The notes beneath the pieces are model-generated. The model saw only the letters and a list, made by a program, of their open reading frames with translations. It was not told the origin of the DNA and made no database searches. Source: an uncultured Chloroflexia bacterium (lineage in GTDB: Bacteria; Chloroflexota; Anaerolineae; Anaerolineales; UBA4823). From it: a stretch of DNA of 64,000 nt. This document shows, piece by piece, positions 53,011-61,720 of the stretch (the stretch's first letter is position 1; each line of letters begins with the position of its first letter). Location of the stretch: contig CAWELB010000001.1 in NCBI GenBank assembly GCA_963809805.1, forward strand, positions 12,447-76,446, written 5' to 3'. The position numbers and the translations under genes were made by a program.

Positions 53011-53018
53011 GGGGAAAG

Positions 53019-53477
53019 GAACACCACAAAGGACCCCAAGGACACAAAGGTTTTTATATTTTTTTTGTAGGGGCGCTCTAGTCCGGTCTGCTGAATCCGG
53101 TTTGCACGTCTACCGGATGTGACCGGATGGCAAGCGCCCCTTCTTTCTTTGTCAAGAACTATGACTGGAATGATTTTATGATTATCCTTCGCGCTCCAAT
53201 TACGCCCATCATTTAATCAACTAAATCATGGTTCAGGGTTCGCTATCACCATGGGTTAAATCCCCTGGCTGTACAAACCACCAAACCCGCCGAAGGCGGG
53301 TTTCCAACGGTTAGCCGGTGGAACGAGTCCGGTCTGCTGAATCCGGTTTGCACGTCTACCGGATGTGACCGGATTCCATCCACCGGCGAGCCGTGCTCGT
53401 AAGATCGTTGATCCCGGCCTTTTTTACCTTCCCCCTATCCCGCGGTTTTGCCGGGATGGGGGGATTGAGGGGGGCGT
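53019..53477. repeat. intergenic modular repeat cluster 2 (modules D 53019-53066, A 53067-53140, C 53172-53236, hairpin 53283-53303, A' 53325-53375, B 53426-53475)
   Basis: GTAGGGGCGCTCTAGTCCGGTCTGCTGAATCCGGTTTGCACGTCTACCGGATGTGACCGGATGGCAAGCGCCCC has complementary outer arms GGGGCGCT/AGCGCCCC. A second partial copy lies 258 bp later, and modules B and C match cluster 1. Confidence 0.85.
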
Positions 53478-54161: not shown

Positions 54162-54350
54162 TGTATGCTCCTTTTGAGAAATAATGTTCCCGTTGTGGAG
54201 GGCCCGCAGGCTGTTGTGGAGAAACCATGTTTGCCTACGCCTGTAAATGTCCTCCCTTAGCGGATATCGGACTATTCCGATATAAAATATTATATTTAGA
54301 ATTGTGGATGGAGTCAATAGGCATTCGGTTGTTTCTGGGGGATTCAGATA

Positions 54351-54549
54351 AAGAACGACACGAAGGCCACGAAGAACACCAAGGTTTTTAAATATATTTT
54401 TTCGCTCACATAAGACGTTCGCGACCTGGGGTAGGGGCGGAACGAGTCCGGTCTTCTTTTACCTTCCCCCTATCCCGCTGCTTCTGCGGGATGGGGGGAT
54501 TGAGGGGGGTCGATCATGCCCATCATTCAATCAAATAAATCATGGTTCC
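54351..54549. repeat. intergenic modular repeat cluster 3 (modules D 54351-54410, A fragment 54431-54456, B 54461-54510, C 54513-54549)
   Basis: The same module sequences as clusters 1 and 2, read directly. Confidence 0.8.
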
Positions 54550-54843: not shown

Positions 54844-54945
54844 CTCAGCCCCGTGATGGGGCTGCTGCGCTGTGGCCAGGTAGGTACTAACTATGGGTTG
54901 AAGGGGGATATTTCTATTTAATGGGTAAGGTCCCCCATTTCCCGT

Positions 54946-55122
54946 GTAGGGGCACTCTAGTCCGGTCTGCTGAATCCGGTTTGCACGTCTACCGGATGTG
55001 ACCGGATGGCATCCGCCCATTCTTATTTTGTCTTCAACCATGAGTAGACTGATTTTATGATTACCAAGATTATTCTCTTCGCTCTAATCATGCCCATCAT
55101 TCAATCAAATAAATCATGGTTC
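54946..55122. repeat. intergenic modular repeat cluster 4 (module A 54946-55018, module C 55051-55122)
   Basis: Near-identical copies of modules A and C lie immediately upstream of the RM gene. Confidence 0.85.
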
Positions 55123-55219
55123 GGCATTTTAATGATTTGCCCTCTTACCCAATGGGGTGTATATTTGTAGGGGAACGGATAAAATCTTTCAATATTTTCC
55201 GATCCACTACAACAACCTC

Positions 55220-58200
55220 ATGCCCATACCCGCTACCCTCCTCCAATTAATCGACCAGTTCCACAACCAGCTCGCTTCCTATCGCTCGTCCGACTACAAC
55301 GAAGCCCAAACCCGTAACGAATTCATCGAACCCTTCTTCCATTTCCTTGGTTGGGATGTCTACAACCGGCAGGGCATCGCCTATGCCTACAAGGACGTGA
55401 TCTACGAGGACTCCATCAAAGTCGCCGGTGGCACCAAGGCCCCCGATTATGCCTTCCGCATCGGCGGCACCCGTAAGTTCTTTGTCGAAGCTAAGAAACC
55501 CTCCATTAACCTGAAAGACGAGATCACCCCCGCCTACCAGCTGCGCCGTTACGCCTGGAGTGCTCACCTGCCCCTCTCTATCCTCACTGATTTTGAAGAG
55601 TTCGCCGTTTACGATTGCCGCCCCAAGCCCGATAAATCCGATAAAGCCTCCACCGGGCGCATCATGTTGCTCACCTATCGTGATTATCCTTCCCATTGGG
55701 ACGAGATTTATGATACTTTCTCCAAACCTGCGGTACTGAAAGGCTCTTTCGACCAGTTTGCCGAGATCGCTGCCGGGAAACACGGCACTGCCGAGGTGGA
55801 CGATGCCTTCTTGTTGGAGATTGAGCGCTGGCGTGAGCTTTTGGCGCATAACATCGCCTTGCGCAATCCCTCCTTCAGTCAGCGTGACCTGAATTTCGCC
55901 ATCCAGATGACTATCGACCGCCTGATCTTTCTGCGCATTTGCGAGGACCGCCACATCGAGTTCTATAGTCAATTACAGTCATTGCTCAACGGTGGTGATA
56001 CCTACGCCCGCTTGTGCCAGTTGTTCCGCAAGGCTGACGAGCGCTACAACTCCGGTCTGTTCCACTTCCATGCCGAGCGCGGCGAAGGGGATGCACCCGA
56101 TACGCTCACTCCCACCTTGGTGCTGGACGATAAACCCCTCAAGGATATCCTCGCTAAGCTCTACTATCCCGATAGCCCCTACGAGTTCTCCGTTCTGCCT
56201 GCCGATATCCTCGGTCAGGTCTACGAGCGTTTTCTCGGCAAGGTTATCCGTCTCACCACTGGTCATCGTGCCGTGGTAGAAGACAAGCCCGAAGTCAAGA
56301 AAGCCGGCGGTGTTTTTTACACCCCCACCTTCATCGTCGATTACATCGTCAAGAATACCCTGGGTAAGCTCCTTGAAGGCAAAGCCCCCGGTCAGGTAGG
56401 GGTAGGCAGGGGCACTCCCATACGTGTCTTGGATATGTCCTGCGGTTCAGGCTCCTTCCTGCTCGGTGCCTATCAATATCTGTTGGATTGGTACCTGAAC
56501 GGGTACACCCTCGAGCCTGAGAAGTGGTCCAAAGGTGCCTCTCCCAGGATCTATCAAATATCCGCCCCCGATGGTGTTCTATGGAAGCTGACCACCTCTG
56601 AGCGCAAGTGCATCCTGCTCGACCATATCTACGGGGTGGATATTGACTCCCAGGCAGTCGAGGTCACCAAGCTCTCCCTGCTGCTCAAGGTGCTGGAAGG
56701 TGAGAGTGAAGAGTCGATCGGTAAACAGCTCAGCATGTTCCGTGAACGTGTCCTGCCCGACCTGGCACACAATATAAAATGCGGTAATTCCCTTATCGGT
56801 CCTGATTTCTATACCGATAAGCAGTCTTCGTTCCTCAACACTGAAGAGCAGTATCGCATCAATGCCTTTGATTGGCACCGTGAATTTGCGGAAGTGTTTG
56901 TTTCTTCAGGTGGTTTCGACATTATCATCGGCAATCCTCCCTATATCCGCATTCATAACCTCGTTGATTATTATCCAGACGAAGTCAAATTCATACAAAG
57001 CCATTATTCAACAGCAAGCTTTGGTAAAGTTGACATCTTTGTTGTTTTCGTTGAAAAAGGTTACCAACTACTTAACGAAACTGGCATTCTGAGCTTCATT
57101 CTTCCAAATAAATTCATGCAGGCTGATTATGGAGTCGGACTTCGTAGACTTATAACTGATAAACACGCTCTAGTAGACCTTGTTGATTTCGGGAATTCCC
57201 AAGTTTTCGAAGGAGCTACTACCTATACATGTTTACTTTTTTTGTCGAAAGTCTATCAACAAGGATTTAAAGCGAAATTTAACCGCACATATCTTTCTGC
57301 GGAAAAATTCCTTGCCGAAATTCCACTTGAAGAACGAAATTACAGTACTTTTGGAGTGTCTCCATGGCAATCTGCACCAATTTCTGATTCAGGAATATTG
57401 CTGAAGCTTGAAGAGATCACATCACGATTGGTAGACATGGTTGATTTAGCAATTACAGGAGTGAAGACCGGTGCTAACAATGTTTTTATTTTTGAGATCT
57501 TAGATAGAGATGAACAATTTGCTCGATTACGCCGCGAAGACACAGACGAGGTTGTGGAACTTGAAACCAAATATCTTGTTCCTTATTTAAAAGCAGATTC
57601 TCTTAAACGGTATCATATTGGCAAAGGGTCACGCTTATTACTTTATCCATATCAGCTATTAAATAATCGTACACAATTGGTTCCTGAATCCGATCTTGAA
57701 AATTACCCAAAAACTTGGCAATACTTGCAAAAATTTAAACGAGAATTAGAGGCGAGACAAAAGGGTAAACTAAAGGGGCCTGCTTGGTATGGATTGAGCT
57801 TTTCATCTTCTTTATCAATGTTTTCTGTACCTAAACTTATTACGCCAACACTTTCACCAAGAAATTCATTTTCATATGAGCAATCTGGATATCTATTCCC
57901 ACAAGGTGCTGGCGGTGGCTGTGGCTTAGTACCAAATACAGATTATTCACCTAATTATTTATTGGGTATGCTAAACTCTCGTTTATTGACTTTCTATTTC
58001 CAAAGAATTAGTTCACCCTTTAGAAGTGGATGGTATGCCTATGAACCAAGATTCTTAAATAGAATTCCTATCTATACCATAAATCTCTCTGACCCTGCAG
58101 ATGTCCAGCATTATAACCAAATAGTATCTATCGTTGAGCGAATGCTCTCTCTTCACGAGCAGTTCGCCGGCAGCAACACCCCCGCTGAAAAGATCCTCCT

Positions 58201-58300
58201 CCAGCGCCAGATTGACACCACCGACCGCCAGATTGATGCCCTGGTCTATGATCTCTATGGTTTGACAGACGAAGAGATCAGGTTGGTGGAGGGTTCGTAG
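55220..58300 (+). CDS. Type IIG restriction-modification enzyme (N-terminal PD-ExK nuclease + gamma-class N6-adenine methyltransferase + C-terminal specificity domain)
   Basis: EAQTRNEFIEPFFHFLGWDV and APDYAF..KFFVEAKKP (the PD...ExK nuclease, HsdR_N-like). GGVFYTPTFIVDYIV, VLDMSCGSGSFLLGA (motif I), IYGVDIDSQAV, FDIIIGNPPYI (motif IV NPPY), a long TRD, and a conserved tail LYGLTDEEIRLVEG. Confidence 0.85.
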   Translation: MPIPATLLQLIDQFHNQLASYRSSDYNEAQTRNEFIEPFFHFLGWDVYNRQGIAYAYKDVIYEDSIKVAGGTKAPDYAFRIGGTRKFFVEAKKPSINLKDEITPAYQLRRYAWSAHLPLSILTDFEEFAVYDCRPKPDKSDKASTGRIMLLTYRDYPSHWDEIYDTFSKPAVLKGSFDQFAEIAAGKHGTAEVDDAFLLEIERWRELLAHNIALRNPSFSQRDLNFAIQMTIDRLIFLRICEDRHIEFYSQLQSLLNGGDTYARLCQLFRKADERYNSGLFHFHAERGEGDAPDTLTPTLVLDDKPLKDILAKLYYPDSPYEFSVLPADILGQVYERFLGKVIRLTTGHRAVVEDKPEVKKAGGVFYTPTFIVDYIVKNTLGKLLEGKAPGQVGVGRGTPIRVLDMSCGSGSFLLGAYQYLLDWYLNGYTLEPEKWSKGASPRIYQISAPDGVLWKLTTSERKCILLDHIYGVDIDSQAVEVTKLSLLLKVLEGESEESIGKQLSMFRERVLPDLAHNIKCGNSLIGPDFYTDKQSSFLNTEEQYRINAFDWHREFAEVFVSSGGFDIIIGNPPYIRIHNLVDYYPDEVKFIQSHYSTASFGKVDIFVVFVEKGYQLLNETGILSFILPNKFMQADYGVGLRRLITDKHALVDLVDFGNSQVFEGATTYTCLLFLSKVYQQGFKAKFNRTYLSAEKFLAEIPLEERNYSTFGVSPWQSAPISDSGILLKLEEITSRLVDMVDLAITGVKTGANNVFIFEILDRDEQFARLRREDTDEVVELETKYLVPYLKADSLKRYHIGKGSRLLLYPYQLLNNRTQLVPESDLENYPKTWQYLQKFKRELEARQKGKLKGPAWYGLSFSSSLSMFSVPKLITPTLSPRNSFSYEQSGYLFPQGAGGGCGLVPNTDYSPNYLLGMLNSRLLTFYFQRISSPFRSGWYAYEPRFLNRIPIYTINLSDPADVQHYNQIVSIVERMLSLHEQFAGSNTPAEKILLQRQIDTTDRQIDALVYDLYGLTDEEIRLVEGS

Positions 58301-58324
58301 GGGCAGGTCGCGACCTGTCCCTAC
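58297..58324 (+). terminator. 28-nt near-perfect palindrome overlapping the RM stop codon (hairpin; member of the GTAGGGGC repeat family)
   Basis: GTAGGGGCAGGTCG/CGACCTGTCCCTAC, with one G-T mismatch. There is no U-tract, so terminator function is uncertain. Confidence 0.35.
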
Positions 58325-58556
58325 TAGTCAGCGCAGGTTGACTCGGTGAATTCAGCAGGCGGGGTTTCAACCACCTGATCGCCTTTATTTATCTCACCCC
58401 CGATAAATTGATTTAATTTAGTCTCTTATTCAGACAATATGATAACGGCAACCAAAGATTGCATTATTGTAGGTTGATTTATCCACTTGATTAAAGGAAT
58501 CACAATATAATGGGAACTGTCATCACCCTAATCTCCGCTGCTTAATCACTTTATTA

Positions 58557-58585
58557 TTTACAAATTTGTTATAGGCATCTATATT
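58557..58585 (+). promoter_or_regulatory. candidate sigma-70 promoter for the AT-rich cassette
   Basis: TTTACA-17 nt-TATATT, about 70 nt upstream of ATG 58655. In AT-rich DNA such matches are frequent by chance. Confidence 0.25.
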
Positions 58586-58654
58586 TTTTAAACCTTGATA
58601 TTATAGATCGGGATTAAAAATAATCATAAATATTTGTTAAGAAAGGAAATCGCA

Positions 58655-59371
58655 ATGCCGAAAAGTTATTATCCACCCCAAACTTTACAAGAAGCATTAT
58701 CCATACCAGATACTATCTACCGAAATGGTGGGCAACCAATGTTTAGAGTGACTCTTGCCGCTGAACTAAAGCTTAGATCAGAAGGCAAAAAATTTCGAGA
58801 AATGATAACATCATCATCAGGTTATGGATTGACCATTGGTTCATATAAAGCCGAAAAGATTGAACTTCAACCGTGTGGAGAAGAAATAGCTAAAGGAAAT
58901 ATTGATGCTGCGTTTGATGCTCTATTCTCAATAGAAGTATTTCAAAAATTTTACGATCATTTTGGAACTGGGGGTAGTAAATCTGTTCCATCTGAAAAAC
59001 CAGCCAGAGATTTTTTAGAAAAAGATTGCACCGTTCCAACTCGCCAAGTCGTTGCAGTGCTCACAAATTTGTTTCAGAATGCAAGGGACTGGCAGCTAAT
59101 TCAAGATATAGCTGGCGGTGAAAAATTCGTACCGGTTGAATTAGCTAAGAAGACAGTACGGTCTGGTGTTGGCACACTCACTCAGAAATTAGAGCCACCG
59201 ATTGATAAGCCATTGCTGCCGGTTACTCTCGAGACAAAAGTCAAGCCTTTGGTCGATATTCCACCTAAGTTACAACTAAATATTGAAATACATATTAATG
59301 CCGATGTAACAGACGACAAGATTGAGACCATCTTTAAAAATATGAAAAAGTATTTATTGACCAATGAATAA
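58655..59371 (+). CDS. hypothetical protein (238 aa), no recognisable motif
   Basis: [10 protein letters not shown] then ATG 58655. The ORF is clean in ~35% GC DNA and its stop overlaps the next start by 8 nt (ATGAATAATGA). Confidence 0.6.
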   Translation: MPKSYYPPQTLQEALSIPDTIYRNGGQPMFRVTLAAELKLRSEGKKFREMITSSSGYGLTIGSYKAEKIELQPCGEEIAKGNIDAAFDALFSIEVFQKFYDHFGTGGSKSVPSEKPARDFLEKDCTVPTRQVVAVLTNLFQNARDWQLIQDIAGGEKFVPVELAKKTVRSGVGTLTQKLEPPIDKPLLPVTLETKVKPLVDIPPKLQLNIEIHINADVTDDKIETIFKNMKKYLLTNE

Positions 59372-59891
59372 TGATCAACCCAAGCTTACCCAAAGGGTAA
59401 GAACTTATATTAACAGTTTGCCAAAAGATTTACTCGAAACAACGCCAATCATTACACCTGACACGTCCTGGCGCGATGATATGCTCCCGTTTGAGCTTTA
59501 TAAAGGAACTACGCTTATTATTGAGAGAGTGGCTGATCAAATAAATAAGTCATTTCACTTTGGAATATACGATGGGTGCGCTGTCTTGATGCGGCGGTTT
59601 ATTGAAATGCTACTGATCTTGACATTTAAGAATTTTAATGTTGAAAATGAAATACTCGATGCATCAGGTGAATATTTTCACTTATCCCTAATCATTAAGA
59701 AGGCAACTGCAAATATAACAATACACCTTTCTCGCAATGCTAAAGAGTATCTTGGTATATTCCGAGATAAAGGCGATCTTTCAGCACATAATCCATTTCA
59801 TCATGCATTAAAAAAAGATTTGGAACTTGTTCAGCCTAAATTTCGCCATTTAGTTCAAGAACTACTTAGCAAATCAGGTATTGTTAAGTAA
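59364..59891 (+). CDS. hypothetical helical protein (175 aa), DUF4145/HEPN-like signature
   Basis: YDGCAVLMRRFIEMLLILTF ... LSRNAKEYLGIFRDKGDLSAHNPFH ... FRHLVQELL. The R-x2-G-x3-A-H pattern and spacing resemble the R..GN..aH core of DUF4145 as I remember it; not searched. Confidence 0.5.
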   Translation: MNNDQPKLTQRVRTYINSLPKDLLETTPIITPDTSWRDDMLPFELYKGTTLIIERVADQINKSFHFGIYDGCAVLMRRFIEMLLILTFKNFNVENEILDASGEYFHLSLIIKKATANITIHLSRNAKEYLGIFRDKGDLSAHNPFHHALKKDLELVQPKFRHLVQELLSKSGIVK

Positions 59892-60070
59892 AACCTATAA
59901 AACTGCTTGCTAAATAGGTATTTGTCAACTACGCTCTCCCAAGTTCAATACAGTCCGACGAACATAAAAGGGGGTGCAAAATGAAAAGCACAAAAGGTTA
60001 TACTCGAAAAACGTAGAAGGTTTCACCTCGCGTAATCATGTCTCCCCTCTTACATGTATTTATGGGTTGT

Positions 60071-60133
60071 GATCTTTTCCGCTAACCTGTGCCGAGTGAT
60101 CTTATCCGCTAATCTGTTATATTATCCGCTTAC
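60071..60133 (+). repeat. three direct repeats with core T(C/T)CGCT(A/T)A (GATCTTTTCCGCTAACCTGT / GATCTTATCCGCTAATCTGT / ATTATCCGCTTAC)
   Basis: Cores at 60078-60085, 60105-60112 and 60125-60132. Two more CGCTAA cores at 60272-60279 and 60286-60293 lie just upstream of ATG 60316. Confidence 0.6.
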
Positions 60134-60224
60134 AAGCTTCCCACATTAGAAATCTTAAAATATTCACGAGTTTCGATAAACCCCTTGTAGATTAGAACAT
60201 ATGTGCTATACTAGGGATACCTCT

Positions 60225-60264
60225 GGCAAGGGAATTATGGTTTTTGATTCCCTTGCCTTTTTTT
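60225..60264 (+). terminator. Rho-independent terminator (11-bp perfect stem + T7)
   Basis: GGCAAGGGAAT-tatggtttttg-ATTCCCTTGCC followed by TTTTTTT. TTGTAG-16 nt-TATACT (60185-60212) sits immediately upstream. Confidence 0.6.
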
Positions 60265-60315: not shown

Positions 60316-60747
60316 ATGCCCCCCACCACCCAAAAACGCCGCGGCGCTCCCAAAGGTAACTTCAATGCCCTCAAACATGGCTTCTACACCCGTCGTCTAC
60401 GCCAACATGACCTCACCGGGGTCGAAGCCACAGAACCCTCCGGACTGATCGAAGAGATTGCCCTCATCCGTGTCTTCACAAGGCGCCTGATCGAATCCAT
60501 TCACCCCGAATCGGATGTCTACGAGCTCGCCGATATCCTGCGCGCCCTCTGCCTGGCCTCCTCCACCATCACTCGCATCGTCAAAACCCAATTCATTATC
60601 ACCTCCACCGGCCCCGGCATGGATGACGAGATCGCCGTAGCCATCAAACGCGTCAACGACGAACTCCGTGCCCGCTATGGCGATTATTCCAATCCCGACC
60701 CCTCTCCGCCCTCGCCCCTGCCACTCTCCTCTGGGATCGAAGAATGA
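60316..60747 (+). CDS. hypothetical protein (143 aa) with N-terminal basic GAPKGNxNALKHG motif
   Basis: MPPTTQKRRGAPKGNFNALKHGFYTRRL..., then a helical middle and a Pro/Ser-rich tail. I recall the motif from small phage/mobile-element-associated proteins, but this is unverified. Confidence 0.55.
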   Translation: MPPTTQKRRGAPKGNFNALKHGFYTRRLRQHDLTGVEATEPSGLIEEIALIRVFTRRLIESIHPESDVYELADILRALCLASSTITRIVKTQFIITSTGPGMDDEIAVAIKRVNDELRARYGDYSNPDPSPPSPLPLSSGIEE

Positions 60748-61054: not shown

Positions 61055-61720
61055 TTTACGGTGTTGGGTTTCGCGAAGCCTCAACCCAACCTACTTTTTG
61101 CTGTTGCGAGCGAAAAAATCCGGGGTCACCGACCCCGGCTGCAGAAAAAAATATATAAATTCTTTGTGAACCTTAGTGCGCTTTGTGCCCTTTGTGGTTA
61201 AATCTTTTCACTAAAAAAATGGTTTATCTGCGTTTATCTGCGTTCATTCCGCTCTTGGGATATCCGCCGGTTTTGCGGATGCTGCGGTTAAATTCTTAAA
61301 GGTTTTGGTTGGGTTTCTACTTTTACTGTTGCGAGCGAAAAAATCCGGGATCACCGACCTCGGTAATAAAAAAATATATATAAATTCTTTGTGGACCTTA
61401 GTGCGCTTTGTGCCCTTTGTGGTTAAATCTTTTCACTAAAAAAATGGTTTATCTGCGTTTATCTGCGTTCATTCCGCTCTTGGGATATCCGCCGGTTTTG
61501 CGGATGCTGCGGTTAATTTCTTAAAGTATCTGCGGTTAAATTCTTAAAGGTTTTGGTTGGGTTTCTACTTTTACTGTTGCGAGCGAAAAAATCCGGGGTC
61601 ACCGACCCCAGCTGCAGAAAAAAATATATAAATCCTTTGTGAACCTTAGTGACCTTCGTTCCTTTGTGGTGATCTTTCTCTTAGTGCACTCTCAGCTGTG
61701 GTGATCTTTCTCTTAATGTA
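61055..61720. repeat. tandem repeat, about 2.6 units of 225/248 bp (unit starts 61102, 61327, 61575), reaching into the dnaE stop codon
   Basis: The units align by eye at roughly 95% identity, and unit 2 has a 23-bp internal duplication. Each unit carries a hairpin CCGGGGT-CACCG-ACCCCGG, a hairpin ATCCGC-CGGTTTT-GCGGAT, and a doubled GTTTATCTGC. GTGGTGATCTTTCTCTTA(A/G)TG occurs twice at 61664-61720. Confidence 0.85.
61586..61611 (-). terminator. probable Rho-independent terminator of dnaE (copies also at 61113-61138 and, degenerate, ~61338-61363)
   Basis: On the minus strand the sequence reads C(T)GGGGT-CGGTG-ACCCCGG followed by ATTTTTTCGCTC, about 100 nt downstream of the dnaE stop. Confidence 0.5.

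Follow-up and report, generated by a model that had tools for sequence, protein, structure and literature searches.

An AT-rich two-gene cassette lies immediately downstream of a restriction-modification (RM) gene in contig CAWELB010000001.1 of an uncultured Chloroflexia bacterium, within a stretch of 64,000 nucleotides (nt) that we call the window and whose coordinates are used throughout. The two genes form a conserved, translationally coupled pair: open reading frame 1 (ORF1, partner A) encodes a protein predicted to consist of two winged-helix modules, a disordered linker and a conserved tail, and ORF2 (effector B) encodes what its sequence relationships mark as a divergent member of the DUF4145/HEPN family. 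We hold, with moderate confidence, that ORF1 is a sensor or antitoxin-like partner controlling a HEPN RNase and that the two together constitute a toxin-antitoxin-like abortive-infection module. A defence or toxin-antitoxin (TA) role had been proposed in an earlier, sequence-only reading of this DNA, and it stands as the best-supported explanation, although the support is indirect: it comes from the domain-fusion partners of the N-terminal domain of ORF1 (N-domain), from a candidate model of PADLOC, and from an effector family whose DUF4145 members have been validated in defence, to which we add the presence/absence polymorphism of the cassette and the pattern of a fast-evolving partner beside a conserved effector.

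The gene pair and its composition

The two co-directional genes encode proteins of 238 and 175 amino acids (aa) and overlap by 8 nt (ATGAATAA), as the sequence-only reading had described (Table 1). An alternative TTG start at 58634 would extend ORF1 to 245 aa; the ATG at 58655 is favoured because the ribosome-binding site AAGAAAGGAAA in front of it is kept in relatives. What argues for treating the two genes as a unit? Hidden Markov model (HMM) scans of fetched loci found, in all 13 distinct Chloroflexota loci with an ORF2 homologue, a gene bearing the ORF1 tail, of either the ORF1 type or the DUF5343 type, immediately upstream; the order A then B is constant, and wherever genes were called the two overlap by 8–11 nt. 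The tight coupling suspected at the outset is thus a conserved property of the pair.

Composition sets the cassette apart. Its content of guanine plus cytosine (GC) is 0.366 over 58330-59891 and 0.333 at 58801-58860, where about 35% had been given; the roughly 55% assumed for the genome was too low, the whole window having 64.7%, and 1.5-kb windows below 45% GC occur only between 56.2 and 60.9 kb. GC at third codon positions (GC3) is 0.28 in ORF1 and 0.30 in ORF2 versus 0.66–0.86 in the neighbouring host genes. The foreign-like composition noticed earlier is confirmed, and comparison with a relative, described below, shows that the segment is an insertion.

Table 1. Coordinates of the cassette, its parts and the gene upstream of it
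Feature	Position	Strand	Remarks
Type IIG RM enzyme, intact	55157..58300	+	PADLOC REase_MTase_IIG, E 2.7e-253; Pfam Eco57I, TaqI_C and HSDR_N
Inserted AT-rich segment	58418..60144	.	about 1.73 kb, GC 0.37; absent from L034; ends +/-3 nt; blastn and composite global alignment
Promoter-like sites TTTACA-17-TATATT and TTGATA-18-AATAAT	58557..58624	+	10/12 matches each; candidates for a promoter function
Ribosome-binding site of ORF1, AAGAAAGGAAA	58639..58649	+	purine-rich; kept in L046 and L001; other loci have their own purine-rich counterparts
ORF1, partner A	58655..59371	+	238 aa from ATG; residues 1-172 tandem winged-helix (predicted), 173-198 disordered linker, 199-238 strand-helix tail
C-terminal tail of ORF1 (…PKLQLNIEIHINADVTDDKIETIFKNMKKYLLTNE)	59249..59368	+	common to DUF5343/PDC-M34A-type partners
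ORF2, effector B	59364..59891	+	175 aa; all-helical; DUF4145 clade of the HEPN superfamily
Predicted catalytic motif R134-D-K-G-D-L-S-A-H142-N143	59763..59792	+	from the alignment of 69 family members
3' part of the insertion	59892..60144	+	no homology to L046

ORF2 and the DUF4145/HEPN family

The sequence-only reading took the second protein to be all-helical and to resemble DUF4145/HEPN-like domains, and both views are borne out. The AlphaFold2 (AF2) model is all-helical, with a mean predicted local distance difference test score (pLDDT) of 81.5. A word-indexed search returned 146 homologues (49–89% identity among those listed); in a family of 69 members, 39 match Pfam DUF4145 (PF13643), with a best E of 1.7e-6. 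Long-form relatives align with this family from end to end (hhalign probability 100%, E 1.5e-44), and one of them, the L030 protein from an Anaerolineaceae metagenome-assembled genome (MAG), scores 26.5 bits for DUF4145 versus a gathering cut-off of 23.1 and reads FRVLGNLSAH where the window protein has FRDKGDLSAH. As far as sequence comparison goes, DUF4145 membership is thus transitive, via the family, rather than by a direct match of the window protein. Foldseek comparison of the model with the PDB points the same way, six of the seven best matches being annotated HEPN or Csm6 structures (2hsb with probability 1.0 and a target-normalized TM-score, TMt, of 0.72; 1o3u; 1ufb; two chains of 2q00; and Csm6), with the HEPN toxin 5yep ranking lower. 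Profile searches of the ORF1 and ORF2 families against PDB sequences gave chance-level matches only. Taken together, ORF2 reads as a divergent DUF4145/HEPN family member.

The catalytic motif of HEPN RNases was taken as R-x(4-7)-H, with R-x2-G-N-x2-A-H as its DUF4145 form, and ORF2 carries GIFRDKGDLSAHNPFH, from R134 to H142, in agreement with it. No variation occurs at H142, G137 and A141 in the 69 members; 67 of them have N143, and position 138 is D or N. There are 19 invariant columns overall; the invariant polar residues are H142, Q59, N61, D70, E81, D152, R161 and E166, and because so many polar residues do not vary ORF2 looks enzyme-like. By analogy with its characterized relatives, ORF2 may well be an RNase. 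One such relative is RAZR/PD-T7-4, a DUF4145 RNase effector in which R146 and H154, spaced exactly like R134 and H142 of ORF2, are both required for defence (PMC13017515).

ORF1: tandem winged helices and a shared tail

The first protein, in which the sequence-only reading could place no motif, does have recognizable parts. Its AF2 model (mean pLDDT 82.3) shows two winged-helix-like modules (residues ~10-80 and ~94-160), then a linker that is disordered (173-198) and a short C-terminal element, and its top Foldseek matches are winged-helix proteins (DtxR, MntR, MarR, SelB and AF1382, with probability up to 0.99). We therefore describe ORF1 as a predicted tandem winged-helix protein followed by a linker and a conserved tail.

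The last ~40 residues (…LQLNIEIHIxADTxDDKIETIFKNMKKYLL…) are near-invariant in the alignment and are the sole part common to the ORF1 class and to a class of ~200-aa partners with a DUF5343 domain; BLASTP between ORF1 and one of the latter, P0178, aligns the tail only, at 69% identity. A relationship between the N-domain and DUF5343 was considered and, at the level of sequence, rejected, since the full-length hhalign match (E 4.4e-28) is due wholly to the tail and falls to a probability of 1.6% once the tail is removed. The tail also leads to PDC-M34, a candidate system in PADLOC: 32 of 52 tail-bearing proteins match its PDC-M34A model, with a best E of 5.9e-45; P0225 does so via the tail only, and ORF1 itself does not match. 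In the comparison with PADLOC that had been suggested, neither cassette protein was matched, the adjacent RM enzyme was confirmed as type IIG, and a majority of the relatives sharing the tail matched PDC-M34A. When the tail alone served as query, a word-indexed search yielded nothing but truncated gene calls (30–76 aa), and a 249-aa protein (P0081) that had looked like a natural fusion of tail and HEPN domain was rejected because its N-terminal extension is different. The literature searched held no paper on DUF5343, PDC-M34, PDC-S35 or DUF7226.

The N-domain has its own distribution. ORF1 has 75 homologues by word-indexed search, and an exhaustive profile search with the ORF1 family gave 1,957 representative clusters at E <= 0.001, among the best 145 of which the fusion architecture was scored. 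Most of these 145 consist of N-domain, linker and tail, including divergent tails such as PQITFNIQVVLPENASPDVYDSIFKSIASNLL; in about 24, the N-domain and an acidic linker are followed by a CAP12/Pycsar TIR-like domain (PF10137, 52–69 bits versus a cut-off of 24.7), and the C-terminal parts of these fusions also match the PADLOC PDC-S35 and CBASS 'Effector TIR' models. Examples with PF10137 are P0223, P0245, P0248, P0250, P0264, P0270, P0281 and P0304; a different TIR-like domain occurs in P0338 (492 aa). In these architectures the N-domain of ORF1 behaves like a swappable sensor.

Other downstream partners of the tail

Tail-bearing genes extend beyond the Chloroflexota into the Actinomycetota, including cultured Amycolatopsis, and one Ignavibacteriales MAG. 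The downstream gene at the Ignavibacteriales locus matches the ORF2-family HMM. The Actinomycetota loci and two further Chloroflexota loci, which together are L052 and L054-L063, have as their overlapping downstream gene a member of either of two different families (~186–200 aa), neither of which aligns significantly with the ORF2 family in hhalign. Family B1 partially matches the PADLOC Aga_Nuclease model, an Argonaute-associated nuclease (E 1.8e-9); family B2 has a canonical HEPN-like ERLxLRNLCGHPT motif and is called HEPN-like from that motif. The B1 and B2 pairs are likewise poorer in GC than their loci, by 5–13 points. No match to PDC-M34B was found among the 69 ORF2-family members or 10 other downstream proteins.

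Two tail-bearing DUF5343 genes have no HEPN partner, at L051:5527-7071 and in the context of P0192, and are followed by a rhomboid-family membrane protein, assigned by Pfam Rhomboid at P0192 and by eye, from a hydrophobic 194-aa ORF, at L051. In the P0192 context the tail-bearing gene directly follows a MiaB-like radical SAM gene, which is also the upstream neighbour of the complete pair in L004; the shared neighbour suggests that gene B was lost.

The cassette as a discrete insertion

The insertion was delimited with L034, a syntenic contig of an uncultured Chloroflexia MAG (CAVUOY010000014.1), found by a species-genome scan with the neighbouring dnaE. The window and L034 have in common the ABC ATPase, 96% identical at the aa level, and, of the RM gene, both the N-terminal half (86% nt) and the last ~55 codons (87% nt), together with a small terminase-small-subunit-like (TerS-like) ORF at 60316-60747 (82% nt) and dnaE; L034 has neither ORF1 nor ORF2, and the flanks of the insertion are 87–92% identical. 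Because the window minus 58418-60144 aligns unbroken with L034 over the junction (…ACCCCCGAT(AAA)TTGATT… in the one, …TATTAGAAATCTTAAA… in the other), the cassette is a discrete 1.73-kb indel, a self-contained two-gene insertion that we read as horizontally acquired. No recombinase gene was found, and the ends lack terminal inverted repeats and a clear target-site duplication, the only similarity between the junctions being a weak ATTTAG/ATTAG match. The cassette is also absent from all 15 dnaE-linked relatives. L034 itself shares a MAG bin (MFD05942.bin.2.106) with L045, and the two dnaE copies in that bin, on different contigs, are 98% and 72% identical to that of the window; the bin is probably a mixture of two related genomes, of which one is very close to the organism of the window.

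Not all of the inserted DNA is conserved. The closest relative, L046, is 85% identical at the nt level and homologous only over 58561-59889; because its homology ends there, the conserved unit comprises a leader of ~95 nt, which holds one promoter-like site in full, and the two genes, with the 253-nt 3' part and the terminator outside it. This bears on two features that the sequence-only reading had ascribed to the cassette. Its own leader is there, the promoter-like sites lying in the AT-rich cassette leader, largely kept in L046, beside a loose inverted repeat (58564-58583 and 58602-58621). The strong terminator also exists, as a plus-strand hairpin at 60225-60257 (listed to 60265) with a 13-bp stem and a T-run 334 nt past the ORF2 stop, but it is no part of the cassette, since it falls outside the insertion, in a segment unlike L034, and is absent from the conserved unit of relatives. 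The 3' segment (59892-60144) gave no RNA structure signal (folding z = -0.85) and no credible small ORF; an Rfam scan of 53-62 kb found zero families, and a tRNA scan none near the cassette. This non-conserved part does contain three direct TTATCCGCTWA repeats at 60075, 60102 and 60122 (60075-60132), spaced by 27 and 20 nt. The sequence has four matches in the window (one of them elsewhere) versus a shuffled mean of 0.52, with none of 100 shuffles reaching four, and the repeats are possibly a protein-binding array.

Genomic context and evolution

Outside the window the cassette has a settled look in at least one lineage. In the Dehalococcoidia it is repeatedly found convergent with panC, and in two other genomes between ruvA and uvrB. 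At shared insertion sites B is 62–69% identical, compared with 64–85% for the housekeeping neighbours, and A is much faster (38–44%) or has its N-domain replaced, as between L019 and L020. That A diverges faster than B at the same sites fits the proposed module, with a fast-evolving partner beside a conserved effector. In the case of L019:7229-8522 and L020:7373-8522, which occupy one site (yebC-ruvC-ruvA … uvrB), the HEPN proteins are 65% identical and the partners align only in the tail, the N-domain being ORF1-type in one and DUF5343 in the other; this points to either replacement of the N-domain in situ or an insertion hot spot.

The low GC content is as constant as the pairing. The cassette is AT-rich in all 13 loci (GC 0.31–0.43 versus 0.42–0.60 in the flanks), and at the five loci with a shared insertion site its GC3 is 0.22–0.38 versus 0.62–0.75 in neighbouring housekeeping genes. 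Because AT-richness occurs at every locus, it is a property of the cassette and no proof of recent arrival.

Observations that weigh against an immune role

Several results stand against the assignment of the pair to a toxin-antitoxin-like abortive-infection module. Neither protein matches Pfam, PADLOC, NCBIfam or PHROGs at E <= 1, and the Foldseek E-values are weak for both (at least 0.014 for ORF1 and at least 0.25 for ORF2). The motif loop of ORF2 (residues 140-144) is modelled with pLDDT below 50, and the HEPN arginine is often lysine: position 134 is R in 30 of the 69 members and K in 38 (55%), so that of the R-x2-G-x3-A-H signature recognized in the sequence-only reading, which is present in the window protein, the glycine, alanine and histidine hold throughout the family but the arginine does not. 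Some tail-bearing A genes lack B or are followed by unrelated genes, which is why the tail is perhaps not a docking element specific to B. Genomic context is no more helpful. Eleven distinct annotated contexts were scanned over 8-10 kb for recognized defence genes, and in nine there were none, the pair standing alone among housekeeping genes; the claim that the locus shows the hallmark of a defence island is accordingly unsupported for most homologues. No match to ORF1 or ORF2 was found by tblastn against annotated phages and plasmids, and an IMG/VR scan produced one distant long-form relative only. Finally, the constant position in Dehalococcoidia, together with the housekeeping-like rate of B, looks like long vertical residence rather than the behaviour of a fast-moving defence gene.

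A possible mechanism and its known counterparts

How might such a module work? Partner A and effector B would be made together, from one promoter and by coupled translation, and A would keep B inactive or unassembled, most likely through contact with the tail. A cue sensed by the winged-helix domain of A, which may be foreign nucleic acid or protein or else the loss of A itself, would then free B to form active HEPN dimers or oligomers, and these would cleave cellular or phage RNA and bring growth to a stop, as in toxin-antitoxin-like abortive infection.

The kind of system is already known, both as HEPN-based toxin-antitoxin or abortive-infection modules and as DUF4145 effectors. RAZR/PD-T7-4 resembles ORF2 in being a DUF4145 HEPN-clan effector with R-x7-H spacing that causes abortive infection by cleaving RNA after activation (PMC13017515), but there sensor and effector are parts of one polypeptide, with a Cys4 zinc finger at the N-terminus as the sensor and assembly on phage ring proteins, whereas ORF2 is a stand-alone protein of 175 aa and a separate protein with winged helices and a tail is the presumed sensor or controller. 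ORF2 has no Cys4 cluster, and PD-T7-4 was matched neither by the window protein (E <= 1) nor by the 69 family members (E <= 0.1). BxaP, which is associated with BREX, and Ishtar1, which acts against plasmids, are likewise single proteins containing DUF4145 (PMC10799925; bioRxiv 10.64898/2026.07.06.735840); compared by description, they resemble ORF2 in that the presumed effector of the defence protein is a DUF4145/HEPN domain, and differ in being multi-domain proteins with other C-terminal domains.

Two-gene arrangements offer a second set of counterparts. HEPN-MNT (HepT-MntA) and RnlA-RnlB also consist of two co-transcribed genes, one for a small HEPN RNase and the other for the protein that controls it (PMC3710099), and the ORF2 fold resembles HEPN toxins such as 5yep; ORF1, in contrast, resembles neither RnlB nor a minimal nucleotidyltransferase, and nothing about it implies AMPylation-type chemistry. 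With PDC-M34 the likeness lies in the strand-helix tail of ORF1, which corresponds to the C-terminus of the PDC-M34A models (the DUF5343-type partners match strongly), and the difference in ORF1 missing the model and in an N-domain without a detectable relation to DUF5343. The PDC-S35-like and CAP12/Pycsar TIR-like candidates, conversely, share with ORF1 the N-terminal tandem winged-helix domain and acidic linker, but there a TIR-like effector is attached in cis, whereas at this locus the HEPN protein is supplied in trans. The split arrangement, a stand-alone DUF4145-type HEPN protein beside a tandem winged-helix partner with the tail, is not recognized by PADLOC 2.0 for the window proteins and is not described in the literature searched.

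Alternative explanations

Type II antitoxins typically combine a DNA-binding domain, a disordered linker and a short C-terminal segment, and ORF1 is built in a similar way, its short C-terminal segment being conserved. It is therefore conceivable, if rather doubtful in our judgement, that the pair is a classical chromosomal type II TA module serving addiction or stress and having no dedicated anti-phage role, in which ORF1 would be antitoxin and autorepressor (winged helices binding DNA, a protease-sensitive disordered linker, a toxin-neutralizing tail) and ORF2 a HEPN RNase toxin. Two small overlapping genes in antitoxin-first order, the cassette's own promoter-like leader, the solitary chromosomal distribution and the presence/absence polymorphism all agree with this, and the swapping of N-domains on a constant tail mirrors antitoxin domain shuffling. 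Every leader also has its own inverted repeat near the promoter; no operator motif is common to the eight leaders, however, and short inverted repeats are common in AT-rich DNA. A is moreover large for an antitoxin, with its 238 aa and two winged-helix modules, orphan A genes exist, and in other proteins this N-domain is joined in cis to TIR-like effector domains, which is at odds with a role as antitoxin. The type II TA explanation overlaps heavily with that of an abortive-infection module and differs from it mainly in biological role.

Could the two genes instead serve a housekeeping or regulatory function typical of the Chloroflexota lineage, for instance as a stress-responsive or RNA-processing RNase and its nucleic-acid-binding partner, and have been laterally acquired here? 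Its syntenic position across divergent Dehalococcoidia (beside panC, or between ruvA and uvrB), the housekeeping-like rate and strong conservation of B, with its 19 invariant columns, and surroundings made up mostly of non-defence genes would be expected of such a pair. We nevertheless consider this improbable, given the patchy presence of the cassette (absent from L034 and all 15 dnaE-linked relatives), a GC3 well below that of its neighbours and the replacement of the partner N-domain at the same site in different genomes; in addition, that N-domain occurs in fusions with TIR-like effectors of the immune type, a PADLOC candidate model is matched by proteins with the tail, and all characterized DUF4145 proteins act in conflict systems.

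The remaining possibility, that the cassette serves the type IIG RM enzyme next to it as an accessory or guard, be it a controller or a PrrC-like RNase that the enzyme keeps latent until a phage inhibits restriction, has in its favour the position of the cassette directly downstream of the RM gene in the same direction, a second RM-adjacent pair in L003 (flanked on one side by genes for an AccI-like restriction endonuclease and an Eco57I-type methyltransferase and on the other by a MazE-like gene) and the DUF4145 genes reported in operons with RM systems (PMC3710099), but it is contradicted by L034, which keeps the RM gene and the same flanks without the cassette, and by the context tally, in which nine of the 11 contexts have no RM system; since, besides, the cassette has its own promoter-like leader behind a hairpin that follows the RM stop codon, the L003 pair lies upstream of its RM genes rather than downstream, and the two AT-rich segments arose independently (see below), we regard the idea, raised in the sequence-only reading, as very improbable indeed. 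The two RM-adjacent contexts among 11, the window and L003, are nevertheless more than chance would lead one to expect, in what is a small sample, and speak for the abortive-infection module.

Neighbouring features

The RM gene itself looks mosaic. Its specificity region (56945-58140) has a GC content of 0.37 and a GC3 of 0.27 and shows no homology to the likewise AT-rich L034 allele (0.377); the difference looks like a target-recognition-domain swap between alleles. Because a conserved GC-rich stretch, seen in the comparison of the window with L034, separates this region from the cassette, the two are independent events. The L034 copy is broken across several reading frames and is either a pseudogene or affected by long-read indel errors. 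A palindrome with a perfect stem, GTAGGGGCAGGTCGCGACCTGTCCCTAC, overlaps the RM stop codon at 58297-58324; it has no T-run, L034 has a longer hairpin at the same place, and it is likely to be a structure at the end of the RM transcript.

On the other side of the cassette, the N-terminus of the ORF at 60316-60747 (143 aa) is weakly similar to phage terminase small subunits (NCBIfam E 1.3e-5). The ORF adjoins dnaE in seven related Chloroflexota MAGs, mostly Anaerolineae-like, at 44–75% aa identity, and its conservation there makes it a resident gene rather than what is left of a prophage. Dispersed intergenic repeat families at 53016-53474, 54350-54548, 54945-55122 and 61057-61700 (59–206 nt, 65–100% identical), including tandem 225–248-nt units and inverted copies beside dnaE, bracket the interval from 53 to 61.7 kb. 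Terminator-like copies on the minus strand, at 61120-61138 and 61593-61611, each consist of an CCGGGGTCGGTGACCCCGG (or CTGGGG…) hairpin and a T-run.

Implications

One and the same sensor-like domain is thus found with its effector in cis, as a TIR-like domain, or linked through the tail to separate downstream proteins. Swapping of effectors and sensors is typical of conflict systems. It is tempting to go one step further and to propose, tentatively and as a possibility rather than an expectation, that the tail is a portable coupling module that joins interchangeable sensors (tandem winged-helix or DUF5343) to interchangeable effectors (the DUF4145-type HEPN proteins, a HEPN-like family with an R-N-x3-H motif, and a family partly like Argonaute-associated nucleases), the sensor being alternatively fused to TIR-like effectors. 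The pair described here would then belong to a family of modular two-component immune systems of some 2,000 clusters (at 50% identity), whose AT-rich codon usage may have been kept by selection through long vertical descent in the streamlined Dehalococcoidia.

For annotation, the locus illustrates how a pair serving the neighbouring restriction enzyme can be a tempting reading and yet an unsupported one. The persistence of AT-rich codon usage in genes that seem to be vertically inherited is a matter of interest in its own right. That DUF4145 HEPN RNases can be effectors against phages and plasmids has been shown only recently, and so far for single multi-domain proteins; the locus would represent a split version of them. 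Should the coupling model be true, the pair would offer a compact, genetically simple system in which to study the activation or restraint of a HEPN RNase by a sensor acting in trans, as well as a way into a PDC-M34-like candidate system that is absent from the literature searched.

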